Source: an uncultured archaeon (lineage in GTDB: Archaea > Thermoplasmatota > Penumbrarchaeia > JASLWR01). From it: 51,789 nt of DNA. Both the position numbers and the translations under genes were made by a program. Below the pieces are notes generated by a model that was given only the letters and a program-made list of their open reading frames with translations, did no database searches and was not told where the DNA came from. The stretch spans positions 1-51,789 of the forward strand of contig CAYSHM010000023.1 in the NCBI GenBank assembly GCA_964430885.1, read 5' to 3'. Position 1 is the first letter of the stretch; the number at the start of each line of letters is the position of its first letter. This document shows, piece after piece, positions 128-43,090 of the stretch.

Positions 128-1708
128 GGCAGTGTCCGGGCTGAAATCCTCGGGCATATAATCCTCGCACGCATAGCAGTACCATCTCTGGTAATCCTCG
201 ATATAGTCTACATCACCTTGGCAATTGGGACATATCGGAGCAGCAGGTTTCACCTCTTCTTGGACCACTTCTTCTTCTTCGGTCTGTTCTTCTTCATGTT
301 TTTCCTCAGCGGCCTCTTGAGCAAAGTCTTCGGGCATATATTCCTCACATGCGTAGCAGAACCATCTCTGGTAATCCTCGATATAATCCGCATCACCGCC
401 GCACTTGGCGCATTTTGCTTCAGGTTTTTTCTCTTCTTCGGCGGGCTTTTCGTCATCTGTTTCTTCAGGTTCCTCCACCTTTTTCTTTACCCTTCTCTTC
501 ACGATTCTCTTCTTGATAGGTTTACAGATCACTCTTTTACCGGAAGGCAAGATGGCTATCCTTTCACCCTCTTTTGGAACTAGTTCTTCTTCAACTGGCT
601 CCTCTTCAATTGGTTCTTCGGCGGCTTCTTCTACCTGTTCGGCTTGTTCTTCCTTCGGCTGTTCTTCAAGTGTTTCTTCTTCAGCCGCATCCTTTGTTTT
701 CTCTTCCTCTGAAACCGGTTCGGCCCGGAAGTCCTCGGGCATGTATTCCTCACAAGTATAGCAGTACCATCTCTGGTAATCCTCGACATAATCTACATCA
801 CCGTCGCATTTGACACAGCTTGGTTTTGCCCCCACTGGCGTTTCCTCTTCCTCGCCTGCCGCTTCTTCTATCAGTTCTTCTTCCTCGATTTCCACTTCTT
901 CGGTGGGCTGCTCCTCTTCCTCTGGACTTTCCCCCTCTTCAATAGGAGCTTCAGCAGTTCCAGGAGTAAAATCTTCCGGTAAATAATCTTCGCACGCGTA
1001 GCAGTACCATCTCGAATATTCTTCAATATAATTAACTTCCCCAGAGCATTTTGGACATACATTTGTGGGCGTTTCCTCCTCGGGTTCTTCTTCCACAGCT
1101 TCTTCAGTTATTTCTTCAGCTGCCTCTTCCTTATCCCCGTGATCATGAGGCTGAAAATCCTCCGGCATATATTCTTCACACTTATCGCAGTACCATCTCT
1201 GGTATTCCTCTATGTATCGAATGGAATCCTTGCATGAAATACAGGTGGGTCCTTCCTCCTGGGCTTCGGGTTGGAATTCTTCCGGCATATAATCCTGGCA
1301 TTGGTCGCAGTACCATCTTTGATATTCCTCTATGTACCTGATTGGACCACTGCATTTATCGCATTTAGGCCAGGCGCCTTCCTCCTTCACTTCTTCTTCC
1401 CCCTGTCCCTTTTCCTCAGAAGGAGTTTCTTCAGGGATTTCCTCAGGTGCTTCAGCAGCTTCATCCTCAGAAGGCAATTCCTCAGGTGCTTCTTCCTGAG
1501 TCGCCTCTTCTTCGGCCACTTCCTCTGCAGCTTCTTCAGGTGCTTCTACCTTCTCTTCGGTTTCAGCAGCTTGATCTTGGGATTCTACCTTGGTTTCGTC
1601 ATCGTCACCCAGAATATCATCTGCTAGCATATCAAGAAGATCTTCTATCTCTTCAGTACCTTCATCTGTATTATTTTGTACATTATTTCCGGAGGTTTCT
1701 TCATCCAT
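1..1708 (-). CDS. Hyper-acidic protein with six tandem Cys4 Zn-ribbon repeats (3' partial, >=569 aa; absent from ORF track)
   Basis: Manual minus-strand translation from ATG 1708 (GGAGAGGT SD-like motif upstream) gives MDEETSGNNVQNNTDEGTEEIEDLLDMLADDILGD... with no stop seen before the window edge. Six repeats of CxxCxxxxxY[IV]E[ED]YxRW[YF]CxxCxxY[ML]PE[ED]F lie in Glu/Ala/Pro-rich linkers. No signal peptide or TM segment in the visible part. Confidence 0.9.
   Translation of the reverse strand, partial: MDEETSGNNVQNNTDEGTEEIEDLLDMLADDILGDDDETKVESQDQAAETEEKVEAPEEAAEEVAEEEATQEEAPEELPSEDEAAEAPEEIPEETPSEEKGQGEEEVKEEGAWPKCDKCSGPIRYIEEYQRWYCDQCQDYMPEEFQPEAQEEGPTCISCKDSIRYIEEYQRWYCDKCEEYMPEDFQPHDHGDKEEAAEEITEEAVEEEPEEETPTNVCPKCSGEVNYIEEYSRWYCYACEDYLPEDFTPGTAEAPIEEGESPEEEEQPTEEVEIEEEELIEEAAGEEEETPVGAKPSCVKCDGDVDYVEDYQRWYCYTCEEYMPEDFRAEPVSEEEKTKDAAEEETLEEQPKEEQAEQVEEAAEEPIEEEPVEEELVPKEGERIAILPSGKRVICKPIKKRIVKRRVKKKVEEPEETDDEKPAEEEKKPEAKCAKCGGDADYIEDYQRWFCYACEEYMPEDFAQEAAEEKHEEEQTEEEEVVQEEVKPAAPICPNCQGDVDYIEDYQRWYCYACEDYMPEDFSPDTAEGAEEAVEEAAEEGAEEAVEEAAEEGAEEAVEEAAEEGAEEA
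137..1363 (-). repeat. Six dispersed coding repeats (Zn-ribbon units)
   Basis: The DNA core GCAG(T/A)ACCATCT recurs near 176, 356, 761, 1001, 1187 and 1307, all in the same minus-strand frame (RW[YF]C). Confidence 0.9.
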
Positions 1709-1749
1709 GTTTTACCTCTCCTATCACTTTTATTACGTAGCGGTAAGGG

Positions 1750-1760
1750 TTTTATAAAAG
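1750..1760 (-). promoter_or_regulatory. Putative archaeal TATA box for the Zn-ribbon repeat gene
   Basis: CTTTTATAAAA on the minus strand ~45 nt upstream of ATG 1708. Confidence 0.45.
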
Positions 1761-1855
1761 AACTTGAATTGGTTACTTCATATATGTATTTTTTTATGGA
1801 TTATATTTATTTATGAGCCAAAAGAGTGAAAATTTTGGGTATTCCATCGGTATTA

Positions 1856-4800
1856 TCACTGCAGCATGCTTTGAGTTCTGCAGCTCGGACATTCAATGGT
1901 TACGGGTCTTTCATCCGCCAAAACCTGCATTGCCGATTCGCAATTATAACAGATGACAGTTTCTCCCTGCGGTGTTTCAACTTCTTTCTTCATGGGAGGT
2001 TTCGGAGGTTTTTTCAGTTTTTTCTCCATTTTTCCCGCTTCGGGAGGTTCATAATCGCCAGGTTTCTTAAAGGTCAGGCCATCATCATCCCCCAGATCAA
2101 GCTTGGCATGTTCAGATACCTGAATGATCTCTTCTTCCCCTGTAGGACCTATCATATCATCCAAGGCCCCGTCCAGCAGATCGTCGATGTCGTCTTCATC
2201 CTCATCTGAGCCCTTTTCACCATCTACGGGGAATTCCTCTTCAAAAGCTTCTCCCTTGGGTTTGGCCTTTCCTTTTCCAGGCGGCGGAGGGGGTGCTTTC
2301 TTCTTTGGTTTGGGCAAGGGTTTTTCTTTTTCACCTTGGTCGACAATTCCATCCTTTTCATCCTCATCATCTTCTTTTGATTCTTCTCTCTCATCTTTTT
2401 CTTCTTTCTTTTGGGAGAGGTCAGATGTTGTTACTAGGGGTTCATCTTCTGATTTATCCTCATCAATATCGCCTTCTTCATCTTCGGTTTCCTTTCCATC
2501 CATATCAATATGCTGCGGCTGGACATCCTCCTTTTTCCTCTTCCGTATCACGATGATTATTATGAGTATTATGAAGAGGACTATTATTAATGCTATTATC
2601 AGCCAAAGAGCTGGAATCGCCCTATCTTGGTCATCATCCGATGATTTGGAGTCGGAAATGACATCAATCGTCCAGTTAAATGAATCATATGTATCTCCAT
2701 CGGGACTCTGAAGCTCAACTCTGAGAATTATCTGTTTTCCAACATATCCCTTCACCATCTTTTTGGAAAACTTATCACCTTTACTTTTCTTATCTTCAAT
2801 GTTGTTCAGGTACCATTTAATTTCGTACTCGTCATCCAAGGGATTGTCAACGTCGATCTCAACTATGAGCATTTTCTCAGCTATAACGGTAACATTGTCC
2901 GCATGGTCATCATCAAAATCCAAAATGGGGAATATATTCTTTATGGGTCTGAATGGTCCAGAACACTGGATTTCTTCAAGATGATTTCCCTCGTAATCGT
3001 ATGCAATAACGGCGATCCAGTAGGAATCACCACCTTTCAATTTTCTGCTCTGGTAATGGTCAATACGAAGGCTTGTATCGTCAATGAGGAATAGCTCCGT
3101 GCTTCCAGTCTCCTCCTTCACCACATGTGCTACATGGTTAGGTAGAAGTAAACTCACATTGTTGTCGAACACGAATACTTTATAATAAGCAAAGTCAGAA
3201 TCAGTTGCAGGTTCCCATTGGACATCCAGGGCGGAACCGTCGTCATTCGGAACATCTGCAGCTCCTATTCCAATCACCCTGCCGGGGGGCAGATTGTCAA
3301 AGCATTTCACTGGACCAAAGGGCACTACGGAAAGGTCTTGGTTCCCCGTAAGATCTTTGGCGGAAACCGCGAAGTAATAATTTCTATTATTGGAGAGGGC
3401 GCTTCCATCAATGGAATCGATCTGTAGTGTTACACTGTCATCGTCATCATTGAGATCCTCTTTATCCAAATATATTATCGGGTCCTCACCCGCAATAGTA
3501 TAGAATTCAGTTTCTTTGATATATATTTCATATGCAACCACATCTTCTTCATCACTCAGTTCGAAGGTTAATGTGAACTCTCCGCCACTATCGCCAGGAG
3601 TGTCAATGACCTTGCTGATCTCAATAGGTTCAGGAGGATAATTCTCTTTACAGATGACGGGTCCGGCCAGATTGATGCCGAACTCTACATTTTTATCCTC
3701 GTTCCATCTTTCATCAACTACTGTAACAGCGATATAATATTCCTTGTCCAGGTTGACCAAGGGCTTTCCTCCGCTAGTGGTAAGAAGAACCTGCTGAGTG
3801 GAGTGCAGATATAGGCTTATTTCGGGGGTCAGACCTTCCACACTGACAAAGGAATAATTGGCGATATATATATTATAGTGATGGAAATCATAGCTGTCAA
3901 ATGATGTCCACATTACACTTATGGCTCTTCCGCCAATATCTTTATAGGTTTCATTTGCTACAGCGTCAGCCACATAAAGCCCTGTCACTGGGCCAGGGGC
4001 AATGTTTTCATAGTTGATGACCGAGGGTGAGGAAGCGATCCGTTCATTGAAATTGCCGGAAGTATCAACTGCAACAACTGCAGCGTAATACTCCTCTCCT
4101 TCGACCAGATTTTCTCCGTCCATTTTCGTGAGGGTCGTATGATTGGTCAGTACATTACCAGCTTCCGGTCCATCGAGTTCACTTACATTAGTGATTCGCT
4201 CATCATCAATGAATACCTCATAATGCTCAAAATCCAAGGCAGTACACTCCTCCCAGTATACTTCTATACTTCCTCCCTGGTCATTGGGCGTATCATATAC
4301 CGTGACATTAGAAACCTGATCCGGAGCTATATTGTCCAGAGGAATCAGCTGTCCTACCTTGTTGTGACTATTTACAGTTCGGTTCTCCAACCTCTCGACA
4401 GAATTATCCACACTGGTTACGGCAAAAAAGTAACCCTGGTCATTGGATAGATTGGTAATATTGTATGAGGTACCAGTATAATTTGTTTCAATAGGATTCA
4501 GTGCATTCAGTGATACAATGTTATTGTTGCTTTGGTAGATATTATAGGTTCCGAAGTCGGGACTGGTGTTTGGCTCCCATTCTATGTGGAGTGCAAATCC
4601 TTCATCATTGGGGATGTCACCACCGGTAACACCGGTTACGCCGACGGGCGGATTGTTCAGGCTGTGTCCTGATCCGTTCACCACCTCAAGGTTTACATTC
4701 CCGTTGTAATCGGTGGCTGAAACTGCAAAGTAATAATCCACCTCATCCTGGAGAGGGTTGCCCTGGTAGCTTTCTATTAGATGGGTAGTGTTAGCAGGGT

Positions 4801-6211
4801 CAATTACCTCTGAGAACAGCGGTGTCATACCTGATACGTTATAGATAGGGTCGGTGCTTGCGTAAACATCATAGTGTTCAAAATCCCACATCTGACATTT
4901 GTTCCATTCCAGAACAAAGGCTCCGCCATTATCGTTTGGAACGTCAGTTACTCTAACGTTCTGGATTGGTGGTGGGGCGGTCAAATCGGGAACATAGTTC
5001 TCCAAACCGTATATTATGACATCATCAATGTAGAAACCGGTATTGTTCCCTCCTGCATCAGCCTCAAAAAAGAACCTGAATTGGATATTAGAAAAGTCGC
5101 GTACCGGGGATTGGAAATCCCACATGGTGAAACCCATGGGAACACCTATGCCCTTTGGTTCCGTGGGATCGACCTGCTGGTTTTGGTTTTCATCCAGATA
5201 CCAATTGGTGCTGATCCAGTTGGGATAGTTGCCCGCATATCCTTGAGGCGGGTCGTTAGCGTTGCCGAAAATATGGTCATAATTGGCGAATCCATCATCA
5301 CTCACCTGATCGGTATATATATGGTCATCACCCCCGCCAGTTCTTCCGCTGAGTTTGTATGCGTAGCTCAGAGGGTATGTGAAATCTTGGGGCCAGGAGG
5401 CACCTGCTTTTCTAAAATTGGACAGGTCGATTACCGGAGATCTGAGTTCCATTGCTGCATTATTGGGATATCGGTCGGGTGTCCCGTCATATCCATGGTA
5501 CCATGCATTTGGGACTGAGTGCGTACCAGCACCCACTGGTGTATCTGTGACATGCCACAAGTCGGTCTGTCCAAGGTCGCTGGGGACATGGGTCCACAAT
5601 CCTTCCCCGTTCTCGCAATCGTCTGCCCATTTATTCACCCAGCCAAGGAGGGTGAAGTGATCGTTTGACCGATTGGTATCATCAGTCACGTTTACGCTAG
5701 CAGTAATGTTGTATAGAAAAGCAAAAAGGAATTGATGAGAAAACTGGACATTGATCGTTGCACCACCAGCAATGTTGTTTATGGTCCTTGTAACATTCAT
5801 GACCTCAATGATTTCGAATTCCTCTGTGGTATTTGCGGTCCATATCTCACAGTAAACATCCACATTGGAAACGGGGTTTCCCAGGTTGTTGGTTACGGAA
5901 ACAGTGAATTCAGTGATCTTTCCCACTATACCAATGCTATAATTCCCTTCGTATCCCGGATCTGTGACCTCCCATCCTTCTATACCGCCATTATAATCAA
6001 TATTATCTACAGATACTTCGGTATCGGCTCGGGATGATATTGTAAATGAATCATGTCCTGCCTGCATGTTTTCTGGTTGGCTCAAGGGTTTGACCTTTGA
6101 ATCTGTTTTCAATTTACTGCTGAATTTGTCATCAACGATGGAATATAAGCTGGCCGAGAAAACAAGTAACATCAGTACAACAGTAATGGTTGTTTTTATT
6201 TTACAATTCAT
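1856..6211 (-). CDS. Large single-pass surface protein: CARDB-like + MAM/immune-inhibitor-A-like jelly roll + six FN3-like repeats + TM + acidic/Pro-rich tail with C-terminal Zn ribbon
   Basis: N-terminal signal peptide and a GFYIDDV strand. Six repeats of PP..V..V...DxPND.G......W...DF..Y..Y...YY.AV.A.D..GN. TM helix LWLIIALIIVLFIILIIIIVI followed by RKRKK. Ends CYNC-x17-CPSC. Confidence 0.85.
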   Translation of the reverse strand: MNCKIKTTITVVLMLLVFSASLYSIVDDKFSSKLKTDSKVKPLSQPENMQAGHDSFTISSRADTEVSVDNIDYNGGIEGWEVTDPGYEGNYSIGIVGKITEFTVSVTNNLGNPVSNVDVYCEIWTANTTEEFEIIEVMNVTRTINNIAGGATINVQFSHQFLFAFLYNITASVNVTDDTNRSNDHFTLLGWVNKWADDCENGEGLWTHVPSDLGQTDLWHVTDTPVGAGTHSVPNAWYHGYDGTPDRYPNNAAMELRSPVIDLSNFRKAGASWPQDFTYPLSYAYKLSGRTGGGDDHIYTDQVSDDGFANYDHIFGNANDPPQGYAGNYPNWISTNWYLDENQNQQVDPTEPKGIGVPMGFTMWDFQSPVRDFSNIQFRFFFEADAGGNNTGFYIDDVIIYGLENYVPDLTAPPPIQNVRVTDVPNDNGGAFVLEWNKCQMWDFEHYDVYASTDPIYNVSGMTPLFSEVIDPANTTHLIESYQGNPLQDEVDYYFAVSATDYNGNVNLEVVNGSGHSLNNPPVGVTGVTGGDIPNDEGFALHIEWEPNTSPDFGTYNIYQSNNNIVSLNALNPIETNYTGTSYNITNLSNDQGYFFAVTSVDNSVERLENRTVNSHNKVGQLIPLDNIAPDQVSNVTVYDTPNDQGGSIEVYWEECTALDFEHYEVFIDDERITNVSELDGPEAGNVLTNHTTLTKMDGENLVEGEEYYAAVVAVDTSGNFNERIASSPSVINYENIAPGPVTGLYVADAVANETYKDIGGRAISVMWTSFDSYDFHHYNIYIANYSFVSVEGLTPEISLYLHSTQQVLLTTSGGKPLVNLDKEYYIAVTVVDERWNEDKNVEFGINLAGPVICKENYPPEPIEISKVIDTPGDSGGEFTLTFELSDEEDVVAYEIYIKETEFYTIAGEDPIIYLDKEDLNDDDDSVTLQIDSIDGSALSNNRNYYFAVSAKDLTGNQDLSVVPFGPVKCFDNLPPGRVIGIGAADVPNDDGSALDVQWEPATDSDFAYYKVFVFDNNVSLLLPNHVAHVVKEETGSTELFLIDDTSLRIDHYQSRKLKGGDSYWIAVIAYDYEGNHLEEIQCSGPFRPIKNIFPILDFDDDHADNVTVIAEKMLIVEIDVDNPLDDEYEIKWYLNNIEDKKSKGDKFSKKMVKGYVGKQIILRVELQSPDGDTYDSFNWTIDVISDSKSSDDDQDRAIPALWLIIALIIVLFIILIIIIVIRKRKKEDVQPQHIDMDGKETEDEEGDIDEDKSEDEPLVTTSDLSQKKEEKDEREESKEDDEDEKDGIVDQGEKEKPLPKPKKKAPPPPPGKGKAKPKGEAFEEEFPVDGEKGSDEDEDDIDDLLDGALDDMIGPTGEEEIIQVSEHAKLDLGDDDGLTFKKPGDYEPPEAGKMEKKLKKPPKPPMKKEVETPQGETVICYNCESAMQVLADERPVTIECPSCRTQSMLQ

Positions 6212-6563
6212 TCGCTACACCTCATTCTTCAGTAAACATCTCGTTGGAGTTTGGAAAGTAGATTTTTTCCATATTATTAATGTAATATTCACTGCAGAGT
6301 ATCGCTTACACAATTCGGTAATATCAAATAAACATTTCTGTATAGTATGAACCTAACTTGATTAAAGGAAATCCAGTTTTTAAGTATTTTGGTCAAATGA
6401 AACCTCGTCCCGATTATTAATAATACAGACTGAGTTTCGAGGTGTTTATCCCTTTTTTATTATTCAAATATTTGGGAAAGTTGGTTTTAATAAGGTGAGA
6501 GTTATAATCTCGTTCTTGGTTCCATTAAACCTCATAATACCTTGGTACACTATGAAAGTCATG

Positions 6564-6587
6564 AAAGAATTGCAGGTGAATGAATGA
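6564..6587 (+). repeat. Direct repeat copy 1 (SD + start region)
   Basis: AAAGAATTGCAGGTGAA-TGAATGA. First 17 bp are identical to 7122-7138. Confidence 0.85.
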
Positions 6588-7159
6588 TGACTAAAAGAAT
6601 CATATCGATGCTGCTGCTAGCAGGGATTTTACTCACAATTTTCACCCCGTCAGTAACATCTTCATCAGTAAAGGAATATTATCTTAAAACCAAGGATATC
6701 AAGTACGAAAAGATCGAACCGGTTAACGAGAAGATCGAACTTGAACTGTATGTGAAGGGCAATGTATCCAAAATTGATATCTACATCATGACCTTAAGTG
6801 ATTATTCAAACAATATGTTTCTGGAGCGGAACTTCACCAATGAGACCATAATGTTCTCCCATAATGTTTATAGTTGTAACATCACATTCGAACCTGAAGA
6901 TGATGATGACTATGTTATAGTCATGGACAATTCAGATAATTATCTCTCAAATGACACGGTCCCCGATGAGGATGTGAGGGTTATGGTCAGGATAAAATAT
7001 ACTAAGTCCGCCAAACCCATGACAATCAAAGGACTGATAATTTCCTTTCTAGCTCTGGTCTTTATAGTTTATTCACTGGTCCTTTATAGAAGAAAGGTAA
7101 ACAGGATCAGAGAAAAGGAAAAAAGAATTGCAGGTGAAGTGAATGAAGAAAAGCAGTAA
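6584..7159 (+). CDS. Small exported protein with C-terminal TM anchor (beta-sandwich-like ectodomain), hypothetical
   Basis: AGGTGA SD, signal peptide, C-terminal hydrophobic helix followed by YRRK. Overlaps the next gene by 17 nt. Confidence 0.8.
   Translation: MMTKRIISMLLLAGILLTIFTPSVTSSSVKEYYLKTKDIKYEKIEPVNEKIELELYVKGNVSKIDIYIMTLSDYSNNMFLERNFTNETIMFSHNVYSCNITFEPEDDDDYVIVMDNSDNYLSNDTVPDEDVRVMVRIKYTKSAKPMTIKGLIISFLALVFIVYSLVLYRRKVNRIREKEKRIAGEVNEEKQ
7122..7146 (+). repeat. Direct repeat copy 2 (SD + start region)
   Basis: AAAGAATTGCAGGTGAAGTGAATGA, identical to 6564-6587 except for one inserted G. Confidence 0.85.
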
Positions 7160-8690
7160 TGAGAAATCCAAAGGGATGCTTCGGGCAGATGATCCTGACC
7201 TGCTAAAAAAAATTAACTATTCCAGTGAAATGGTGATCCCTAAAGATCCAATCGAGAGGGTAATAGGCCAGGATGAAGCAGTGGAACTGGCAAAAATTGC
7301 AGCCAGACAAAAACGTCATTTGCTGCTTGGGGGGCCCCCTGGTACCGGGAAATCCATGATCGCTCAGGCCCTTGCTCTGCATCTGCCTGCCCCCACTGAA
7401 GAAATATATGTGGTTCACAATCCGGAAAATCCAGAGCGTCCTTTTGTGGAGCGAAAGAGCGCAGAGGAGATCATGAAGAAGGAGAGGAGCCGGGATATTG
7501 CCGAGGGGATCATGCTGTCGGCTACTGAGGTCCCGGGTGAGATAGCCATCAAACTAGGTTTCAAATGCAATAAATGCGGCATATATTCTCCGCCTCAGGT
7601 CTCGTCCTGCCCTGCTTGCGGTCAGACCAAGGTCGGAACTGAATCTGAAAATGATAAACGTTTCATATCCTTTGGTAATATAAAGATGGCCTTTGGACCG
7701 GGACGGCCTGCAAAGAAACAGGTAACTACCACAAGGAAGATTGACGGCAGGGAAGAAGTGGTCATCTATGAGAGGGTCAATGACCGAATCCTAATGATCG
7801 ACCAGGAGGCCTTGGAGAAGCGCAAGGAATTGAAATCCGAATCGCCCAAGAAGAGGCTTGTTAAACTTGACCGCAACCCCTTTGTATTAGCAACTGGGGC
7901 TTCTGAGACCGAATTCTTAGGTGATGTGAGACATGATCCCTACGGTGGTCATGCGGGATTGGGAACTCCACCCTATGAACGTGTAGTTGCAGGAACCATT
8001 CATGAGGCTCATGAAGGAGTACTTTTCATAGATGAATTGCCCCATATCGCTCATCTCCAGAGGCAGATTCTCACTGCGATGCAGGAAAAGGTATACACTA
8101 TAAGCGGAAGGAATCCACAGAGCGCAGGTGCCTCTGTGAGGGTGGAGGAAATACCGTGCAATTTCATTTTGGTGGCAGCATGCAATATTCAAGATCTGGA
8201 TAAAATACTCTCACCTCTGAGGTCAAGGATAATCGGTGAAGGTTACGAGGCTTTGATGGCCACGACAATGGAGATAAATGATAAGAACACCGGACTTCTT
8301 GTCCAGTTCATTGCCCAGGAAATTATTATGGACGGCAAGATACCTCATGCGAATAGAAGCGGAATTTTGGCCATCCTCGAGGAGTGTAAAAAGAGGGCAA
8401 AGGATACGGATGATGAAGATGATTCCTATTCACTCCGGTTAAGGGATATGGGCGGACTTATCAGGACCGCCGGTGATCTGGCCGTTTTCAGCGGTGATGA
8501 GTTTATAACTGAGCAGCACGTAAAGAGCGCTATCAAGAGATCCCGTTCCCTTGAACAGCAGATAGAAGACCGGTACGGAAGTTATTATGGTGGACTTGCC
8601 AGGGATATATCATCGGCACAGAAGAGCGCGTCATCGCCATACAACTACTGGAATACCCACGTCCATGATGATAAGAAAGGGTATGACTAA
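7143..8690 (+). CDS. Archaeal LonB-related AAA+ ATPase lacking the protease domain and TM insert, with Zn-ribbon insertion
   Basis: VIGQDEAV, Walker A GPPGTGKS, GDVRHDPYG, Walker B VLFIDE, NPQSAGASV, Arg finger PLRSRI and LRLRDMGGLIR are LonB hallmarks. CNKC..CPAC insert. Protein ends ~30 aa after LEQQIEDRY. Confidence 0.88.
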   Translation: MKKSSNEKSKGMLRADDPDLLKKINYSSEMVIPKDPIERVIGQDEAVELAKIAARQKRHLLLGGPPGTGKSMIAQALALHLPAPTEEIYVVHNPENPERPFVERKSAEEIMKKERSRDIAEGIMLSATEVPGEIAIKLGFKCNKCGIYSPPQVSSCPACGQTKVGTESENDKRFISFGNIKMAFGPGRPAKKQVTTTRKIDGREEVVIYERVNDRILMIDQEALEKRKELKSESPKKRLVKLDRNPFVLATGASETEFLGDVRHDPYGGHAGLGTPPYERVVAGTIHEAHEGVLFIDELPHIAHLQRQILTAMQEKVYTISGRNPQSAGASVRVEEIPCNFILVAACNIQDLDKILSPLRSRIIGEGYEALMATTMEINDKNTGLLVQFIAQEIIMDGKIPHANRSGILAILEECKKRAKDTDDEDDSYSLRLRDMGGLIRTAGDLAVFSGDEFITEQHVKSAIKRSRSLEQQIEDRYGSYYGGLARDISSAQKSASSPYNYWNTHVHDDKKGYD

Positions 8691-8734
8691 TGGAAAAACA
8701 AAACCTAAATAATATGTGATTGTTATATTGGGAT

Positions 8735-9193: not shown

Positions 9194-9214
9194 TCCCTGT
9201 ACTCATATTTACGA

Positions 9215-24137: not shown

Positions 24138-27100
24138 CTAATCCCAAGAGAACAAATCATCATCCTTTCCTTTGCTGTCGTTATCCCAGTTCATATCACT
24201 ATTTTCATTATCCCAGGAATCATCGTTGTTGCCCAGGTCAAAGAGTTCATCAAGAAGATCTCCAGAGTATCTATCACTTGGTTCTGAATTTTTATTTTGG
24301 TCAAGGTCTTCAAAGATGTATTCCCCATCGTCATTGAAATCATTGTCCGCACTGTAATCCTCACCCCATTCCAGCTCCTCATTTTTATCGTTTTCATAGG
24401 GATCTTCATCCCAATCCTGTCTTCCTCGGTAATTCGAATCATTTGATGAATGCTGGTGATTATCCAATTCACCCCCGCTTTGGCGGGGATTATTGTTTCT
24501 TCGGGAAATATTAGGCATGTTTGAATATAGGTCAGAATAGTCTCTTTTATCCTCAACGGTTTCAGAAGGTCGTGTTTCAACTTTACTACTCGCTCTTTTC
24601 TTTCTATCTTTTTCCTTCTTTTTATTGCCCTTTTTTCTTACTAGAAGGGCAATAATGATTATGAATAAAATGATAGCTGAAATGACAATGATTATTATCC
24701 ACATGAGGTTATCCTTTACAAGTTCACCAGCATTGTCCAGAGCGCTGTCCTTTTCCTTTATATTTATATCAGTTCCATAATTTGCGCTTGTGCCTTCGTC
24801 AAGCAGGGATCTAAGCTGAATGTCCAGGTCATACTTCCCACTGGGTATATTTTCAGGAATAGTTATGTTGATCTTCAGATCATATACCCTGTCAGCTTCT
24901 ACCTGGAAGGAATTGAATTCAACTTTGGCCCATTTGGCAGCTTCACCGCTTATCAGTATTTCATAATTATCGATCCCGTTTCCAGTGTTCTTGATCTCCA
25001 GGTTCCAATCGGAATTATAGGCATTTCCTTGAGTAATATTAAGATTTTCAGGAAAATCCGGAAGGATTTTCAATCCGTAGAGTTGCTCTACATTTATCTC
25101 GATTGTCAGCTTATCCGATACCACTGGATCGCCGGGTGGGTCCTGGGCCGATACGGCTATCAGCTCAATAAGGTGTTTACCGGCCAAGGCGTTTTCGTCT
25201 ACCTGAATGGACAGTTTTCCTTCACAGCTTGAGAAACATTCCAATGGATAGGTGGAATTGACTAACTGTCCGCTGATCCATGAAACCGTATTGAATGATA
25301 CGTACAAAGTATCTCCAGAATTACCGAGATTGGATAGGTCGAATTGAATATCCTTGCTTTCACCAGTCTTCATATTAAATGCTGATTCCGCGCAGGTTAT
25401 TTCACAGCTGTACAAGGGTTTGATCACTACTTTTATTCTCTGAATGCTGCATATGCTTGAATTCTTACTGGAAGAAGCCTTGAAGTCGAAATAATATGTG
25501 CCTGCCTCTACATGTTCACCGGGTGTGACCCTGATCTCACTGAAATGTGTCTCATAGGCGTCTATCGATACCAGAGTTGATGGGATGTCGATATCCCAAA
25601 GGCTCTCCCCGCCAATTTCTAGCTGGTGGGAAAAATTGGACAGCGATATATTAATCATGTCCCTGAAGTTACCCCGATTCCTGATTTCCATGGATGTGTT
25701 GGTGGCATTACCATTGACGGTTTCCAGATTGTTGGAACCGAATTGCAGTTCAACATCGGGAATTTCCGCAACACTAAGGTTAACAGTTTTGATCTTGGCA
25801 ATATCTTGTGAGATGGATTCAACTCTAATATTAAAGGAATATCCTCCGGCAGTTGCATATTCGGGCACTTCCACCCTCACTGTTGCATTATGATGAGAGA
25901 ACTCATCTATTCTTACATCAAGATCATCAAGTGTTATTGCCCAGTTCGAAGGATATGTGATGATCTCCAGGTTGAAATCATCTTTTCCATTCCCTGAATT
26001 GATTATTGGAATATCTATCCATACCTGCTGGTTGGGAATAACATCGTAAGCCATAGGGGGCTCGATCTCGAATCCGTAGGTTCGATTAATAATGACATTG
26101 AATGCATGGTGATCATAAGCTGTTCCATTTGACATGACGGATGTAGCAGTAAAAACCAGCTGTCGGTTTCCAGCAGTACTTTTCGAAACTGGTATAATAT
26201 TTGCAGTTATCCTATCTTCGGAAAAGGCTTCCATGGTGAAATTATCCCTTGATAGCTCTACTTCCCAACCCTGGGGGATGTCTTGAAGTTCAATGCCCAC
26301 TATGTCCTGACAATTGGCCTGATTCGAAATATTCAGCTTGAATGATACAGGTTCACCCGGATAGGTTGATATATCTTCTACTGGAGAGGACAGTTCCAAA
26401 CCAAATTCTTCGGTCACGCTACATGTCATGTTCACAAATGTCCCCCTACCACCACTCATCACTCCTATGGGGAGAATATGGTTTGAATGGGCCAGAAGCC
26501 CTTCTGGCAGAGTTACTTGTATTGTTATGTTCTTTTCCTCTCCCGAAGCGATAGGTGTGTTCTGAGCAGAGCTGCCAGAAAATGATTCAGGGAGCTTTGA
26601 GAAATCTATATCTATCCTTTCCGCGAATGGTCCGTTATTAACCACCTTGATCTCATAAGTGCATGTTTCTCCAGGTTTTGCTTCATCAATTTCTTTCAAA
26701 ACGGTGAAATCTGTAGGCATTCCTCCTATAGCTAAAGAAGGATCACCAAGAAGATTGTATTCCGCCAGAGTCTTATGGTCCATGACATCATTGTTCCCCA
26801 CATCGTTCATATAATATGTGCAGGCTCTAGCTAGCATACGGCCAGGAGTTCTATGCCCCTCCTGAAAGCTTTTGTATAGATGGACATCCATAAAACCTGA
26901 TCGATGCTTGTAATAGTCGGTCCCCCAATCCCCCCATCCAACTCGAGTGCAGGAGATGACTGCAATTCCTCCCCCTTCTTCGTTCAGAAGCAATTCTTCT
27001 GAAATCGCCTCACCAGGATTATCCGGCCAAAATGTGGGTTTAAGTTCATTGTCGAAGGATCCGCACAGGCATGCGTCGAAGGTGAAAACAGGTAATTTAT

Positions 27101-35307: not shown

Positions 35308-35671
35308 CACTCTTATTATATATATGGTGGATCAAAATTGAATGGGAATGTTGATGATATTATTTATCTAAACCTAATAAGTCTATAAAAAATTAACCAT
35401 ATTTTTAAGGTCCTCCTTCTTTTTATGAAGTAGTCTGGCCAATATTATTCTACATTTAAGGACCAATTGAAAGAATCGATGTAAAATGCCAATGATAATT
35501 ATTGAAGAAGGTCATCTTCAATTGAGAAATATCAAATAACAATTATGAAGGGTTTTCTATGTATTTCCAACAATTAATTATAAGATTTCATTGACGAATA
35601 CTGTTAAATATAGTGAATCGTATTTAATAAAACGATTTGAACAAAGAATTTTTGAGTTAAAAGGTGAAAAT

Positions 35672-38600
35672 ATGTATTCAATATTGTCGACTAGATTGAC
35701 TAAATCAAAATGGATGAGCCTATTTTTCGTCCTATTGTTGTTGGCCCCAATGGGTTGGATGAACTTGTTCAGTTTTAGCACCAATGCAGTAAATCCTCCA
35801 GATGCTAATCTCGAAGAAGCTACAATGATATCAGGTCTAAGTTCTTTCGGCTCTGATGAACCCCTGCTCATATGGGATAATGACGGGGGAGACCAGCCTG
35901 ACGGTCTGAACGGCTGTGAAAGTTTCATAAATGACTCCCTTGCATCCAATGGGTATCAGAACATTACCATATCTGCACAGGGTGAAAACCTAACTGCTTT
36001 TAATTTGACCAACTATACAGTGGTTTTCATAGTATTGGGTATGGGCCCGGGAACAGGTAATATTTCAGCGCCCGAAATGGCCGAATTAACTGCTTTTCTG
36101 GACAATGGCGGCAGGTTATATGTAGAGGGTGGAGACATAGGTTTCCAAGCCGAAGATGCCTCGGGAAGCGGAGAATACGCAAACCTTTGGCCTTATTTGG
36201 GAGCCCAGTATCAGAGCAACGGAACCAATCAGGAATATGTTGTTGGCTGTGCTCCGGTGATCACCCAGAATCTGTCATTTGCCTATACCGGCGATAACGC
36301 ATCAATGGATGAAATAGGTTCGGCAAACGGGGGTTTTGAAATACTCAACAACAGTGGCACAGGATTTGGTATTGCAAATAACAAGAGCTACCGAACTGTT
36401 CTTTTCACCTTTCAGTTCGGAGGTCTGGTCGATTGGGGTAACTTCACCACCAAGGATGAGTTGATGAGACGCCTGATGCATTTCTTTGCCTATGAAAAAA
36501 AGGTCGACATTTCAGTTGGCAAGGAAAACCTGCCCACAGCTTCGTTCACAGATTTCGAGACTGAGTCCGACGAAGGATGGACCCATGGAATAGTCCAGGG
36601 GAACATTGATTGCTGGGAAAGAGGACTCCCCACTTCAGGTCCCAACTCTGCCCATTCCGGGACCAATGTTTGGGCCACAGATCTTTCAGCAAATTATCTT
36701 GATTTTACTGACTGCGCCCTATATATGCCTAGAGTGGATCTTTTCCCCAACTCAAAGCTGGAATTCTGGCATTGGTATAATATTGAGAGGGGATGGGATT
36801 TCGGCCAGATAGAGGTTCAGAGCCAGCCAGGAGGAAATTGGCAGATGATTTCATCCTTCACGGGTCAGAGCAACGGATGGGTGAAGGAAACGATATCCAT
36901 TCCGAATCAGTTCTCTGGGAACGTTCAGATCCGGTTCAGGATAATTACTGATTTCATCATCACAGCACCGGGATGGTATATTGATGATATAGGTCTCATT
37001 TCCGACAACGGGATGTTCGATCACGATGACGGATATTTTGTCAGTAATGAGGTTGAAATAGAACCCAATGTGACAGTAAAGAATGAAGGGAATGTACCTG
37101 CAGCTTTTGATCTGAGAGCCCGAGTTTATAATCAGAACAACGGAACTGAGGTCTATAATCAGAGCGTTCTGGTAAATCTTACACCTCGGGAGACAATGGA
37201 TGTGGGTTTCCCGCAGAAATGGAATACAAGTACCGATGTCAACGCTACTTACATAATGGAATTCATGTCACTGGCCAATGAGGAGAATGGCACAGATGCC
37301 AACAATGTCACATCATTCTGGATATATGTGGGAATATTCACGGACCTCGCCAGTCAGGATGTGATGTTCAATGTTAGCGATCCCTTCCTACCGGGTATCA
37401 ATCTTACTCCTAAGGGCAAGTTCCTTAACCTCGGTAATGCTAATATCAGCGCATTTACAGCTTCTTTGAAGATCACCGACACCAATTCAACCGTTATTTA
37501 CTGGCAGAACGTTTCCGGCAATTATCTGAACCTTTCTTGGGGAAACAGTACAATTATCGAATTTCCGGTCTGGCAGGTTCCAAACGGTGAGGACGATTAT
37601 CTGGTGAATCTTTCCCATGATTTTGTCGATAAGGACAGTGGAAATGACATATATCGCACATGGGTCAAGGGTGAGGAATACTATGATGCTATGGTTGAAG
37701 AGGTTCTGTTCAACGTCTCCCTTCCGCTCAATTCCTCGGATGTGGTAAATATCACTGTTCCAATAGTCAATAATGGGAATATAGATGCCCTGAACTTTGC
37801 GGTAACCTGTGTAGTTCTCAATCAAACAGGGTCCGAGATATATAATGCCACGAATGCTTCGGTGAGTGTAGGTTTGCCAAACGGCAATATCACAAGAGTG
37901 GCCTTTGACAACATACAGCTGCCTTCCGAAGAAGGCGATATTACTGTAATAATAATCATAACTTGGCCTAACGATGAGAATCAGTCCAACAATCTCTTTA
38001 TGGATGATTTTCCCATCGATGACCATCACGACGTGGGTTTCCCTGATCCCCTGGATGTTCAGATAGTTGGTGAGAAGCAGTATGATTACTTCCCCCTTGG
38101 TCCCCGAGAGATCCGGACGAACATTGCCAATTTCGGAAATGTCAACCAAACCCCCACAGTGAGATTCGATTATGCCATAGAGGGTCCGCCCCGATATCTT
38201 TTCTTCGATGATGTTGAGGGAAGTGTGGCCAATGATACCTGGACAAAGGTGAACTTTGCAGGTGGCCAATCCCAGTTCCACGTGGTGGAGCCTAATTCAC
38301 CTCACAGTGATTTTCATTCCCCCGATCACTCATGGTGGCTGGGTCAGGAAGCTACCGGGGATTATGCCGATAATAATGATGCTGAACTCATATGCACCAG
38401 GATGGATCTGAGGGGGGAGACAGAGGCCACATTGAACTTCTGGCATGATTTCAAGATCGCACAGGATGATATTCTTGGAATTGCTTACAGTTTGACGTCT
38501 CTGGATGATCCGCCGAACGGTATGTGGCAGTGGTATGCAAACTGGCAGGGAGGTAACAGCGGCGGATGGACTCAAGCCACATATGATCTGACCCCCTTTG

Positions 38601-41600
38601 CAGGTCAGGAGTTCCTGTTGGGTTTTGTTGCTCTTACACAGGATAATGCAGGAGTTCCAACCGTGGATGATGGATGGTATATCGACGATATAAACATAAC
38701 GGGTCCCAACCCCATTGTTATTGACAGCCATTTTGTGCAAGCACCTGAACTGGCACCAGGACAGAATGCCACCGTGACAGACGTTTATGATTTTCAGCAG
38801 AATAATACCTATTTTATTCTTCCGACAACTGTCCTTCAAGGAGATGAGAACGTGGCCAATAATGACGGCTACAATACTTCAATGTTCATGGATTTCTATG
38901 ACCTCTCACCCACCTCCATTGAGGTCCAGGGTGCTAGGACGACCTTCGAGAAACTGGACCTCAGTGAGAACGATGGCGGATTGATACCTGGAGGAAGATG
39001 GTCATTTGAATGGGGACTGCCTACAAACCCCACCGGTCCGTTGAGCACAGGATTCAATGATAACTGCTGGGCGGTAAATCTGGATTCTGATTATAGGGAG
39101 CACCAGGACATTACTCTTACTTACATGCTGGATCTTAAGAACTACACCGGGGCGCAGCTTACCTTTGATCACTGGTATCTTACAGAAGAAGGTAATGACG
39201 GTCTTTGGCTGGAGATAAAGAATGGGACAAATGATGATTACCTAAATTTGACTCCCCTTGGCGGTTATCCGTCCTTTACAAAGGTGCCATGGGATGGTAC
39301 TCGTATACCTGCTTACAGTGGAAAGAGCGGCTTCGATCCCTTTTTCCCCGAATGGAGGCAGCCGATTTTCAATATATCCGAATATGTCGGTTATGTGGTG
39401 GAGATAAGGTTCCATTTCTGCAGTGATAATGTCCCAAATGATCCAGGGTGGTTTATGACCAATCTCTCGGTCATTGATCCGTATACAAATGCCTGGTACA
39501 GGATGAACTCAGGTGAGGATTGTACTGTGAATTTCGATTTCACAAATCTGGGCAATATCCCTTCAATTCAGGCTTCAGCTCATCTTAATGTCAGGGGTAT
39601 TACCGATCCAGGCTATTCTTATCAGGATACCATCACCATTTCAGGTATTGATCCACTTGCATTGGAAAGCGATGTATTTACAACCCCATGGACCCCGCCG
39701 GCAGTTGAGGGTCTCTACTGGATGAATATAACTCTGGACATACCCAATGATCTTAAACCTGAGAATTCTGAGATTGGCATTATTGTTGAGGTGGAGGATT
39801 TCCATGCTTTAGCTGCAAAGGACATACTGCTGCCTATTGAGAACCAGGCCTATGCTTTGGGAGACACTATTGGGATAGGCGCTCTTGTAAGGAACTGGGG
39901 CACCCATCCGGAACAGGATGTGGATGTGGAGATAGAGATAGTAGATATTGATAATGCCAGCTGGGCACCTGTGGTATTGACCGATACCCTGGATGATATC
40001 CCTCTCAAGGAAGATGCCTTGATGGAGTTTGATTGGACCATCCCGGATAGGTTGGGTGCGAGATATATGATCACATTGACGGTAACCCATCCGCTGGATG
40101 AAAATGCTACCGACAATGTTTATTCTCACATTTTCTACGGCCTGCACAAGAGATCCGCCAATGGGCTGTTCGGTTTCATTGTTGACAACTCCTCAGATTC
40201 ACCTTACTACAGCCAAGCTCTGAGCGGTGTTGATGTGCTCCTTGTGAGCAGGAATACCGGAGACCTTATGAACACCACCCAGACCGATGAGTTGGGTTAT
40301 TATTACTTCGATCTATGGGACCAGGTGCCTGGAAGGGAATACTGGGTCTATTACCAGAAGGATTGGTACTATCGAAGCACCTATCTGCTGTCACTCATGC
40401 CTAGAACAGTCTACAGAATGGATATGGAAATGGAATCCAGCAACCTGCTGCCTATAGCCCGGTTGATGATAAATGGCGGTGAATCCATGACACATTATTT
40501 CATAGATAATATGGAACTAGAATTTGATTTCTCCTCTACCTTGGATAATGATGATCCTGGTCAGATGCTCACCTACAGATTGGAGTCCGATATTTCGGGT
40601 CTTCTTTTCCAGGGTGAGAATGACAGTTTTGTCACATCTCTTGTCAGCGGCAGCCATAACATTACTTTAACTGTATCTGATGAGATGGGCGGTTTTGCCA
40701 GCACGAGCACTACGGTCATATCGATGAATACAAGCTGGAAATCCTACAATATAGGAGTTCTAACTGTTGAGCTCCTCTGTGCAGGACCTGGTGCTATAAT
40801 TATTGAGAATCAGGAAGTAATGCCACATTTACCAGCTGGATACGTGGATATTCATGAGGATTTCCATTTCAACCTGAAGATCCAAGGTGATTTTTTCATT
40901 GAGGGGATGATCATTACAATGACCTATACCGACGATATCCTTCACCATAATGCTTATGAGACTGATCTGGGAATATTTGTATATTACCACCGGCCGCAGA
41001 CACGCAGCCTGGCAGGGTGGTCTGAATTAGAGGTCATTGAGAGAGATTTCGAGAATAATACCCTTTCAGTCCTAAATGATAATCGAACCTGGCAAATGGA
41101 TATAGATATATCCATGATGGCTCCGGAGGATGTCACACCTCCAGCAGTATTGGAAACCGTACCGGTGGACAAGGAAAAGAATGCAAGTATCTATACGGAC
41201 ATTTACATTGTGTTCAGTGAACCCATTCAGTTCAACCTTCTGAAGAAGAGCGATATGACAGTGAAGGTGGATGTTGTGGAGACCAAGGATTACAGTCTTC
41301 GCTATAATGACACGGAGAGAACACTCTATATTGTCATGGACTCCCATCCCCTGGATCCAAATGAGAAGTATTCTGTAAAAATTGACCGGGTCTTCGATCT
41401 GGTGGGGAATGCCCTTGAAGAGATCACATTTTCCTTCAGGACCAAGGAACCTGCAGTATTGAAGGAAAAGGTTCATGGTTATGTCAGGGATAAGAATCTC
41501 AATCCGCTTTCAGGAGCCAGTCTGCTGGTCGATGGAGATATGGTAGCTGTTACCGATGACTGGGGTTATTTTTCGTTCTATATCCAAGCTGGAACCTATA

Positions 41601-43090
41601 TACTCACAGCCAATCGTTCAGGATATCTTGACCGGACCTATGATGATCTAAAGGTTGAACTTGGAAGGGTAGCTGACAGGAGCTTCATTCTTGAGAAATT
41701 CATGGTCTATGATATGGTGGAGGTTAGAGGAACGGTCACAAATGAGGACGGAAGGGCCTTAGGCGGTGTGAATATTTATTTGGGTGAGGCAGGAGGCTCA
41801 TTATATTGGGAAGCCAAATCCAATGCCAGTGGCGGATTCAGATTTGATACTATATACGGTTCATACCAGGTAGTGTTCAGAAGAGACGGATTCCGCGATC
41901 TGACCATAGATTTTGATCCAATTAACCAAACAGAAATATTGGATGTGGTGATGTCGGACGATACCCTTCTCCGAATAATTGTAAAGGATGAGGACGGCAA
42001 TCTGCTTGAAAGGGCTGAAGTTTCCATACAGAATGGTCCCACGGTGGTAGAAACCGGGACCACGGATGCTATGGGATTCTTAGAGCTTGACGGTATCCTC
42101 ATCCCTGGTACTTATATTATTGTCTTCAAAGCCGATGGATACAAGGAGGCCAGGAGGACCGGTATTGAACTGAGTTCAGGAAATGTCACGGAAGTACAGA
42201 TCAATCTAAAAGCCGAAGCTGTTTCAGACGATGGCGATAGCAGTTCCGCGCTTTCGTTGATCGGCTGGATATTGTTCATTATTGTGCTGATAATTGTCGT
42301 CCTGCTGGTAATAATTGTTGCCAGGAGACCTGCGGTAGACGGTAAGGAAGAATCCATAGATGATAATGAATCTGCTGATGAAGCGGAACCGGAGTCCGAT
42401 CTCACAGAGGGTGAGGGAGGGGATGCTGAGCCGTCAGCAGGGGCGGGAACAGAAGAAGTAATTGGCGATGGAACCGGAGCTGAAACAGGTGCTCAGGAAT
42501 ATCAAGCCCCGCAATTGGGTTCTGCTCCTATTGCAGATGAAAAATTGGCTCTTGATGATGGAGCGCAAAGAGACCTTCCGGCCTTACCTTCAGCTCCAGT
42601 CTGTCCCTCCTGCGGTATGGAAGCAGATTTCAGAAAGGATACGGATTCATACTGGTGCAAGGATTGCAAGGAGGAACTTACCAAGGACGTCGGTATATTA
42701 TCCGTGGAGGAATCGGAATCTTTGGCAGATGAGAGTGCTGTAGACGGGGAAAGTACGGAAGCTACTAAAGAAATCCCGGCGGATTCGGCTGAATCATCCG
42801 TTTCTCCACAAGGAGAGGATAGTGAAGTGGAAATTGAGCTCCAATCCGAACTTCAGGATGATAGTGGGGATGAAGAACAGAGGACCCATCAGGATCAATC
42901 TGCTATAGATGATGCAGCCGAGGCTTCGGACGAAGAGGCCGGTGCAACAGAAGATACGTCAACCACTGAGAACCCTGAAGAAAATAGTGAAGATGGTACC
43001 GTAACCGAAGGGGAAGGCCAGGAAGAGAGCCAGGATATAAACGAAGACGATCTTGATGATATGCTGGATGGAATAATGGACGATATCTGA
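35672..43090 (+). CDS. Giant (~2470 aa) single-pass surface glycoprotein: MAM/InhA-like jelly rolls, CARDB-like, Big_5-like and carboxypeptidase-regulatory-like domains, TM, acidic tail with Zn ribbon
   Basis: ATG 35672 with AGGTGA SD and a signal peptide. Three jelly-roll modules (FWHWY..GWYIDDI; FWHDF..GWYIDDI; FDHWY..GWFMTNL). DVTPPAVLETVP...VFDLVGN. TM + ARR. Tail CPSC..YWCKDC. Confidence 0.88.
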   Translation: MYSILSTRLTKSKWMSLFFVLLLLAPMGWMNLFSFSTNAVNPPDANLEEATMISGLSSFGSDEPLLIWDNDGGDQPDGLNGCESFINDSLASNGYQNITISAQGENLTAFNLTNYTVVFIVLGMGPGTGNISAPEMAELTAFLDNGGRLYVEGGDIGFQAEDASGSGEYANLWPYLGAQYQSNGTNQEYVVGCAPVITQNLSFAYTGDNASMDEIGSANGGFEILNNSGTGFGIANNKSYRTVLFTFQFGGLVDWGNFTTKDELMRRLMHFFAYEKKVDISVGKENLPTASFTDFETESDEGWTHGIVQGNIDCWERGLPTSGPNSAHSGTNVWATDLSANYLDFTDCALYMPRVDLFPNSKLEFWHWYNIERGWDFGQIEVQSQPGGNWQMISSFTGQSNGWVKETISIPNQFSGNVQIRFRIITDFIITAPGWYIDDIGLISDNGMFDHDDGYFVSNEVEIEPNVTVKNEGNVPAAFDLRARVYNQNNGTEVYNQSVLVNLTPRETMDVGFPQKWNTSTDVNATYIMEFMSLANEENGTDANNVTSFWIYVGIFTDLASQDVMFNVSDPFLPGINLTPKGKFLNLGNANISAFTASLKITDTNSTVIYWQNVSGNYLNLSWGNSTIIEFPVWQVPNGEDDYLVNLSHDFVDKDSGNDIYRTWVKGEEYYDAMVEEVLFNVSLPLNSSDVVNITVPIVNNGNIDALNFAVTCVVLNQTGSEIYNATNASVSVGLPNGNITRVAFDNIQLPSEEGDITVIIIITWPNDENQSNNLFMDDFPIDDHHDVGFPDPLDVQIVGEKQYDYFPLGPREIRTNIANFGNVNQTPTVRFDYAIEGPPRYLFFDDVEGSVANDTWTKVNFAGGQSQFHVVEPNSPHSDFHSPDHSWWLGQEATGDYADNNDAELICTRMDLRGETEATLNFWHDFKIAQDDILGIAYSLTSLDDPPNGMWQWYANWQGGNSGGWTQATYDLTPFAGQEFLLGFVALTQDNAGVPTVDDGWYIDDINITGPNPIVIDSHFVQAPELAPGQNATVTDVYDFQQNNTYFILPTTVLQGDENVANNDGYNTSMFMDFYDLSPTSIEVQGARTTFEKLDLSENDGGLIPGGRWSFEWGLPTNPTGPLSTGFNDNCWAVNLDSDYREHQDITLTYMLDLKNYTGAQLTFDHWYLTEEGNDGLWLEIKNGTNDDYLNLTPLGGYPSFTKVPWDGTRIPAYSGKSGFDPFFPEWRQPIFNISEYVGYVVEIRFHFCSDNVPNDPGWFMTNLSVIDPYTNAWYRMNSGEDCTVNFDFTNLGNIPSIQASAHLNVRGITDPGYSYQDTITISGIDPLALESDVFTTPWTPPAVEGLYWMNITLDIPNDLKPENSEIGIIVEVEDFHALAAKDILLPIENQAYALGDTIGIGALVRNWGTHPEQDVDVEIEIVDIDNASWAPVVLTDTLDDIPLKEDALMEFDWTIPDRLGARYMITLTVTHPLDENATDNVYSHIFYGLHKRSANGLFGFIVDNSSDSPYYSQALSGVDVLLVSRNTGDLMNTTQTDELGYYYFDLWDQVPGREYWVYYQKDWYYRSTYLLSLMPRTVYRMDMEMESSNLLPIARLMINGGESMTHYFIDNMELEFDFSSTLDNDDPGQMLTYRLESDISGLLFQGENDSFVTSLVSGSHNITLTVSDEMGGFASTSTTVISMNTSWKSYNIGVLTVELLCAGPGAIIIENQEVMPHLPAGYVDIHEDFHFNLKIQGDFFIEGMIITMTYTDDILHHNAYETDLGIFVYYHRPQTRSLAGWSELEVIERDFENNTLSVLNDNRTWQMDIDISMMAPEDVTPPAVLETVPVDKEKNASIYTDIYIVFSEPIQFNLLKKSDMTVKVDVVETKDYSLRYNDTERTLYIVMDSHPLDPNEKYSVKIDRVFDLVGNALEEITFSFRTKEPAVLKEKVHGYVRDKNLNPLSGASLLVDGDMVAVTDDWGYFSFYIQAGTYILTANRSGYLDRTYDDLKVELGRVADRSFILEKFMVYDMVEVRGTVTNEDGRALGGVNIYLGEAGGSLYWEAKSNASGGFRFDTIYGSYQVVFRRDGFRDLTIDFDPINQTEILDVVMSDDTLLRIIVKDEDGNLLERAEVSIQNGPTVVETGTTDAMGFLELDGILIPGTYIIVFKADGYKEARRTGIELSSGNVTEVQINLKAEAVSDDGDSSSALSLIGWILFIIVLIIVVLLVIIVARRPAVDGKEESIDDNESADEAEPESDLTEGEGGDAEPSAGAGTEEVIGDGTGAETGAQEYQAPQLGSAPIADEKLALDDGAQRDLPALPSAPVCPSCGMEADFRKDTDSYWCKDCKEELTKDVGILSVEESESLADESAVDGESTEATKEIPADSAESSVSPQGEDSEVEIELQSELQDDSGDEEQRTHQDQSAIDDAAEASDEEAGATEDTSTTENPEENSEDGTVTEGEGQEESQDINEDDLDDMLDGIMDDI

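Follow-up and report, generated by a model that had tools for sequence, protein, structure and literature searches.

An acidic amphipathic motif recurring in cytoplasmic tails of unrelated archaeal surface proteins: a putative docking element with likeness to LD motifs

Introduction

The linking of receptor tails to common cytoplasmic partners by short linear motifs is regarded as a eukaryotic trait. Among the closest described systems are the LD motifs, helices in disordered regions whose docking site is a hydrophobic patch with basic charges beside it (10.1101/278903). Those of the paxillin family (LDxLLxxL) bind FAT, vinculin-tail, parvin and talin domains, and the same source places the origin of LD signalling in unicellular eukaryotes (10.1101/278903); a similar motif in an archaeon is therefore to be read as convergence unless shown otherwise. 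CheZ's C-terminal peptide and the N-terminal peptide of FliM are described as occupying a common face on CheY receiver domains (PMC3774744).

The window, by which we mean the whole stretch of 51,789 nucleotides analysed here, is contig C23 of a 3.13-Mb Thermoplasmatota genome (G000, 92% complete). This non-Asgard archaeon encodes ~180 single-pass surface proteins; their tails are disordered, and one element recurring in them appears to converge on the LD motif.

Methods

Genes of G000 were called by a custom script, which gave 1,956 predicted proteins, and membrane helices were assigned by hydropathy, so that all protein counts are approximate. A total of 179 single-pass proteins have cytoplasmic tails of 30–600 residues; removal of the carriers named in the original prediction left the 176 tails used for enrichment. 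The disorder of motif regions was assigned from composition. The relaxed pattern was [LIFMV][DE][DES][LMIVF][LF]xx[LIFMV], and it was frozen before being applied to a sample of 0.4 Mb each of the related genomes G003 and G002.

Results

Four sites in the window and the anatomy of the motif

The original prediction held that four unrelated proteins of the window share an acidic, LD-like motif. All four peptides are present as described: DLLDMLADDI (1613–1642, minus strand), DLLDGALDDM (2153–2182, minus), DLLDELFDL (24234–24260, minus) and DMLDGIMDDI (43058–43087, plus), the last directly preceding the stop codon. As judged from sequence, three of them belong to one motif, whereas the C25 copy is a variant outside the proposed consensus and matches neither the original regex nor the relaxed pattern. 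Tails behind a membrane helix hold three of the four sites only, since hydropathy shows no membrane helix within the 569 visible residues of the Zn-ribbon protein, which runs off the contig end.

The Zn-ribbon protein carries six CxxC..WYCxxC zinc ribbons at about 167–1363, and its continuation was not found on other contig ends. Because a ribosome-binding-site-like sequence precedes its ATG, the motif copy lies near what should be the true N-terminus. A zinc ribbon closes the tail of the FN3 protein. The giant protein has MAM, Ig-like and carboxypeptidase-regulatory-like domains, followed by an acidic tail of 255 aa with one zinc ribbon at about 42602–42667. The Lon-like ATPase gene adjoins the FN3 gene, in G002 too, and its product is 66–67% identical to two archaeal records, one of which is labelled Thermoplasmatota. 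No Rfam match was found within the window. The coordinates are collected in Table 1.

Table 1. Positions of the motif copies, their carriers and further features (window positions unless a genome and contig are given)
Feature	Position	Strand	Details
Motif copy IEDLLDMLADDI, residues 21–32 of Zn-ribbon protein	1613..1648	-	helical moment 0.60, net charge -5
Acidic Zn-ribbon protein, 569 aa, open at contig end	2..1708	-	from translation
Ribosome-binding-site-like GGAGAGGT ahead of ATG at 1708	1714..1721	-	
Basic VVRRKVV-type motif within Zn-ribbon protein	about 470..515	-	
Motif copy IDDLLDGALDDM, internal to cytoplasmic tail of FN3 protein	2153..2188	-	moment 0.52, net charge -5
FN3-domain single-pass surface protein, 1,451 aa	1856..6211	-	membrane helix about 2546–2602
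Variant copy SGDLLDELFDLG in C25 peptidase tail	24231..24266	-	from translation
C25-family peptidase, single-pass, 1,559 aa	24138..28817	-	membrane helix about 24642–24698
Motif copy LDDMLDGIMDDI, extreme C-terminus of giant protein	43052..43087	+	moment 0.59, net charge -5
Giant single-pass surface protein, 2,499 aa	35591..43090	+	membrane helix about 42266–42322
Lon-like AAA ATPase, 515 aa	7143..8690	+	CxxC motifs, no predicted membrane helix
GroES/GroEL pair of bacterial type in an archaeal genome	12988..14986	-	GGM-repeat tail; from translation
Type I polyketide or fatty-acid synthase, 3,047 aa	G000:C5:108864-118007 (L171:10665-19808)		
Soluble protein with seven identical zinc-ribbon repeats	G000:C8:72955-74769 (L173)		relatives L044-L046
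Receiver-domain protein	G000:C36:11642-12430		fused to roadblock-like domain
Receiver-domain protein	G000:C6:138999-139817		fused to roadblock-like domain

The motif appears to be better read as an acidic amphipathic helix of 12 residues starting two residues before the register first proposed. Hydrophobic residues stand at positions 0, 3, 4, 7 and 11, the net charge is -4 to -6 per 12 residues, and the hydrophobic moment is 0.48–0.60 at helical periodicity versus 0.18–0.24 at strand periodicity. The terminal class has the consensus DDLDDLLDDLxDxL, and the copies sit in tails or linkers of low complexity. The spacing comes in at least three forms: that of the C-terminal 12-mer, that of an FG variant in one cluster of tails, and the LDxLFD[LF] of the C25 peptidase. 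The N-terminal copy of the Zn-ribbon protein and the internal one of the FN3 protein indicate that a free C-terminus is not needed. Motif profiles matched no PDB sequence at E ≤ 10, and the ESM Atlas returned no usable match for the last 46 residues.

Enrichment over chance

The original regex, D[LM]LDx[ALI]xDD[IM], has four matches in the 1,956 proteins, three being the sites from which it was derived and one being independent, at the C-terminal end of a surface protein of 1,910 aa encoded on contig C24; local shuffles gave an expectation of 0.01, with a maximum of 1 in 100 shuffles. With the relaxed pattern, 21 matches were found in the 176 tails against 1.29 expected from whole-tail shuffles and 1.75 from local shuffles (maximum 6 in 200), an excess that is partly circular since the pattern was written after reading these tails. 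The ectodomains of the same single-pass proteins gave 8 matches versus 16 expected, and the soluble proteins 76 versus 43–45, a 1.7-fold excess as ordinary helices do give. In acid-rich windows, the counts were 11 versus 0.78 expected for tails, 0 versus 1.2 for ectodomains and 10 versus 2.3 for soluble proteins. The proteome scan that had been proposed as a check thus places the motif in tails above compositional chance. When one tail was taken per sequence cluster, a mean of 8.5 matches in 136 tails remained (0.83 expected); the reversed pattern, given beside these counts, yielded 4.

The matches are biased towards the C-terminus. Ten of 22 end within 7 residues of it, with 0.96 expected, and such matches occur in 10 of 178 single-pass proteins versus 7 of 1,652 others (P = 6e-7). 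Eight of the 22 matches, mostly of the FG-type variant, come from a single cluster of related tails, so that they are not independent of each other. A refined 12-mer pattern, which was fitted to known carriers, gave 7 matches versus 0.5 expected.

Retention, gain and loss among orthologues

We regard orthologue retention as the strongest evidence for the motif. Aligned sequences indicate that in at least three orthologue groups outside the window the relatives keep the motif while the linkers diverge. In the soluble protein C3:150346, the terminal motif is kept in all three relatives and its window ranks first of 99 for identity among windows of the last 135 residues; a protein-database search with residues 560–847 returned only the self-match. 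In the C6:46160 group, the linker is acidic in G000, and Gln/Pro/Ala-rich in the orthologues of G001 and G003, which end in LDDMLGELLEGL as against IDDMLGDLLDDL; a 71-aa fragment of G002 has the same ending. With the motif kept across this switch of linker, composition gives no explanation. The C24:21954-like proteins keep the motif in three of three relatives (rank 3 of 246), their repeated domains making orthology less certain, and C8:118369 keeps it in three of three as well, at rank 38 of 230, its zinc ribbons being better conserved. An orthologue of C19:17447 was found in one of the three relatives and has the motif, and C5:47184 has no orthologue in the three.

The conservation by which the original prediction was to be checked is therefore borne out by other carriers, whereas its own four are poor in this respect. 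The three orthologues of the giant protein (43% identical) lack the motif and have a basic VVRRKVV-type ending instead; two of three FN3 orthologues lack it, the third having a weak IDDILRSA; the C25 orthologues carry only the variant, as LDALFDF or LDSLFDF; and searches of five relatives and of metagenome contigs gave no orthologue of the Zn-ribbon protein. The counterparts in the C25 and C19 groups were assigned by eye, MAFFT having left these motifs unaligned. There is also a reverse case, a gene that has the motif in G001–G003 and whose best match in G000, C18:51385, has none. The absence from all three giant orthologues and two of three FN3 orthologues means that the motif is gained and lost. 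The giant protein and the C24 protein have 13 of their last 14 residues in common, with four synonymous codon differences, which would fit either an old copying of the tail end or convergence.

Spread among relatives

The frozen pattern gave 4 matches in 37 tails of G003 (0.26 expected) and 1 in 24 tails of G002 (0.17 expected), or together 5 in 61 versus 0.43; of these five, one was known beforehand and two come from the same protein. In 58 tails from nine genomes of other families there was no match. In G005, a profile search of the whole genome revealed a C-terminal copy of the FG type. Across the phylum, 22 of 351 genomes matched the motif profile, and 14 matches outside the class were examined, of which nine are a folded FtsY N-domain helix, four lie in other proteins that are folded or in frames that are doubtful, and one (G121) is a C-terminal copy behind an acidic linker. 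Taken with the 58 empty tails, the copies in G005 and G121 indicate that the motif is concentrated in the family and not confined to it.

A modular set of tail elements

Of the 179 tails, 55 have polyproline runs, 51 have paired CxxC motifs and 30 have acidic-Trp motifs, and the acidic helix is hence one part of a modular set. The tails also reuse LPALPPAP-type runs, a Y[DEQ][KR]LYG motif (nine proteins) and an F[KN]I[DS]L-type C-terminus (five), and hold roadblock-like, kinase, DnaJ and winged-helix domains. A terminal zinc ribbon is found in tails and on soluble proteins too (27 pattern matches). A PCNA-like gene adjoins the relatives of the soluble protein with seven zinc ribbons in G001 and G002.

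Discussion

A putative docking motif and its alternatives

Judged by its sequences, we take the motif to be real, under selection and not named before; a literature search for LD motifs and amphipathic helices in archaea, with subscription journals mostly outside its reach, found nothing. Its recurrence in the disordered cytoplasmic tails of many unrelated proteins probably marks a shared attachment tag. We consider it fairly likely that this tag is a lineage-enriched short linear docking motif, which recruits unrelated proteins to one shared cytoplasmic partner. A disordered cytoplasmic stretch of ~12 residues would fold upon binding into an amphipathic helix, with Leu, Ile, Met or Phe at positions 0, 3, 4, 7 and 11 on one face and Asp or Glu on another, and this helix would enter a hydrophobic groove lined by basic residues on one cytoplasmic protein or domain family. 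Many unrelated surface proteins, together with a few soluble ones, would thereby be recruited or anchored to one scaffold. The motif would have arisen by convergence on the LD principle, with gain and loss between orthologues. The common partner that the original prediction supposed for its four proteins may then exist, and the motif provides a defined peptide bait in the search for it.

Short acidic amphipathic helices are, alternatively, a common solution to binding, and the sites could be several unrelated micro-motifs with different partners, so that the four proteins would share none. The three or more spacings, together with the N-terminal position of the Zn-ribbon copy and the internal one of the FN3 copy, speak for this, and variants of the motif may indeed bind different proteins. 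The 12-mer class, however, keeps the same form in membrane and soluble proteins that are unrelated, and we hold this alternative to be unlikely, if the most serious of those weighed here.

Within the preferred reading of one shared partner, a tentative and rather doubtful candidate may be named. G000 encodes several giant soluble helical-repeat proteins; such rods reach 7,295 aa in the family and are built of three-helix units of ~66 aa (G000:C17, C18 and C22; G001:C92, G003:C3 and G002:C42; L166-L168). A conserved basic unit recurs every five to eight units along them, at a spacing of 330–530 residues, and in it lysines and extra hydrophobic residues replace glutamates of the ordinary units, so that it looks like a repeated binding site. 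At positions 20, 31, 52 and 59, the frequencies of Lys/Arg are 1.00, 0.93, 0.64 and 0.79 in 14 high-scoring units versus 0.72, 0.46, 0.12 and 0.21 in 125 low-scoring ones, and the extra hydrophobic residues of the former stand at 22 and 64. Of 50 columns, 25 are invariant in the first basic unit, compared with 4–22 in other blocks. The unit is predicted to be a three-helix bundle (pLDDT 87), and its best PDB profile match is alpha-spectrin (E = 2e-4); no Pfam spectrin match was obtained among 29 rod units at E ≤ 0.5. The spectrin repeat is ~106 aa long, and the rod unit is shorter. On the model, the unit would complement the motif in charge and shape. It is a first candidate for the partner, which would tie the surface proteins to a spectrin- or talin-like cortical scaffold.

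The distribution of the rods bears on this candidate in both directions. Matches to a 1,502-aa rod (E ≤ 1e-20) occur in all four family genomes and in none of 27 other genomes of the class, and at least two basic units are present in 9 of 156 rod sequences and in none of five rod fragments of other families, a restriction that is partly circular because the unit was defined from the family's own sequences. Generic rod units, however, occur in 29 of 31 genomes; four related genomes are too few and too closely akin for an argument from co-occurrence; two blocks further along the same rod come close to the first basic unit in conservation (21–22 of 50 columns); and the basic unit could serve rod–rod assembly instead. 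Prediction of a complex between the unit and a motif peptide scored 0.03 versus a mark of 0.32, with the controls not folded, and so speaks neither for nor against binding. A Foldseek search with a 500-aa rod model of low confidence gave no match at E ≤ 0.001. VIA-align with the unit returned generic bundles (top Z 9.8) and EzrA (Z 9.3, rmsd 3.7, 84 aligned), all below the level that is meaningful for helical bundles. Atlas clusters closest to a rod protein belong for the most part to Thermoplasmatota. A search for the MreB family found two Hsp70-type proteins only. Were the rods the partner, they would form a receptor-anchored cortical scaffold of independent origin; more speculatively, and at similarly low odds, the family would have evolved an adhesion-plaque-like code independently, with an LD-like helix docking on basic rod units, and hence a receptor-linked cortical skeleton without actin.

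Receiver domains were rejected as a likely partner on their counts, with two in G000, among the fewest of 31 genomes. The roadblock-like domain to which both are fused is also found in two surface-protein tails.

The motif could instead be a signal for degradation or quality control that an AAA+ unfoldase or protease of the PAN, Cdc48 or Lon type reads; this would account for the strong C-terminal bias, and genes for one PAN-like ATPase, two Cdc48-like proteins and Lon-like ATPases are present in G000. The motif may also have a likeness to the helix of actinobacterial Pup; searches for a Pup ligase or deamidase gave no match in the 92% complete G000, the C. glutamicum control being positive. 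We find this explanation improbable in view of the internal and N-terminal copies, and of the concentration of the motif in one family when PAN, Cdc48 and Lon-type ATPases are general archaeal equipment.

A still less probable reading is that the helix binds not a folded domain but the membrane, metal ions or basic motifs of neighbouring tails. Such binding would suit an amphipathic motif, and the giant and FN3 tails of the relatives (L008-L010, L032-L034) have a VVRRKVV-type stretch where G000 has the acidic motif. The net charge of the motif should, however, disfavour anionic lipids, and the VVRRKVV-type motif is found in none of the 179 G000 tails.

Mimicry of the FtsZ C-terminal peptide, which binds SepF and could so bring surface proteins to the division ring, seems very improbable. 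The M. smithii FtsZ peptide NEDQLDDFIDGIF resembles the end of the giant protein, and one SepF (E = 4.8e-13) and FtsZ homologues are present in G000; the M. smithii peptide, however, is described as binding in an extended form around a GID-centred motif (PMC8178401). The carriers have no GID-centred motif and show Leu, Met or Ile at the Gly of FtsZ, and the two full FtsZ proteins of G000 end in GDMGIDFIR and GASNIPYIE, unlike the motif.

Chance occurrence in low-complexity tails rich in Asp and Leu, with copying of tail ends as the means of spread, would suit the near-identical endings of the giant and C24 proteins and the relatedness of some carriers' tails, but it is hardly credible when shuffles, acid-matched windows, cluster-collapsed counts and the linker switch all exceed chance, and the Gln/Pro/Ala-linker orthologues of C6:46160 largely refute it.

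Comparison with known systems

The putative docking motif shares with the paxillin LD motif its shortness, acidity, amphipathic character, disordered context and hydrophobic spacing of 0, 3, 4 and 7. The LD resemblance asserted by the original prediction is fair in this helical spacing and in that 7 of 13 aligned family peptides, all seven from relatives, have the strict LDxLLxxL consensus; DLDSLLDDLE in G001 and G003 fits the paxillin LD1 form DLDXLLXDLE (10.1101/278903). It fails for the four sites themselves, none of which fits the strict consensus, and the other 176 G000 tails contain no strict match. No vinculin domain was found in four genomes, where the control was silent, and no FAT domain in one genome. 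With the four sites outside the strict consensus and neither of these LD-binding domains found, we do not file the motif as an LD motif. Different from paxillin LD, the archaeal motif is usually a single copy, often placed at the very C-terminal end of a membrane-protein tail, reaches a hydrophobic position 11, and tolerates Phe, Ile and Met.

The M. smithii FtsZ C-terminal peptide with SepF (PDB 7AL2; PMC8178401) is likewise archaeal, acidic-hydrophobic and C-terminal behind a disordered linker, with similar letters, but differs in its extended, GID-type binding, and the FtsZ tails of G000 differ from the motif. CheZ and FliM also use a short terminal helix as a prokaryotic docking tether, in a setting of receiver domains that is scarcely represented in G000. 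The N-terminal recognition helix of Caulobacter PopZ is a small amphipathic helix with a binding-motif core in a disordered prokaryotic protein, as the motif may be; PopZ is described as one soluble hub with many clients (PMC12682051), whereas here many proteins bear the helix. HubP/FimV resemble the carriers as single-pass proteins in which the client-recruiting cytoplasmic regions are long, acidic and unstructured; they are given as one per genome with a folded C-terminal TPR as the main interface (PMC12918733), in contrast to the numerous surface proteins and modular tails found here. By analogy, the motif may work like an LD motif or the PopZ recognition helix, placed in a HubP/FimV-like setting.
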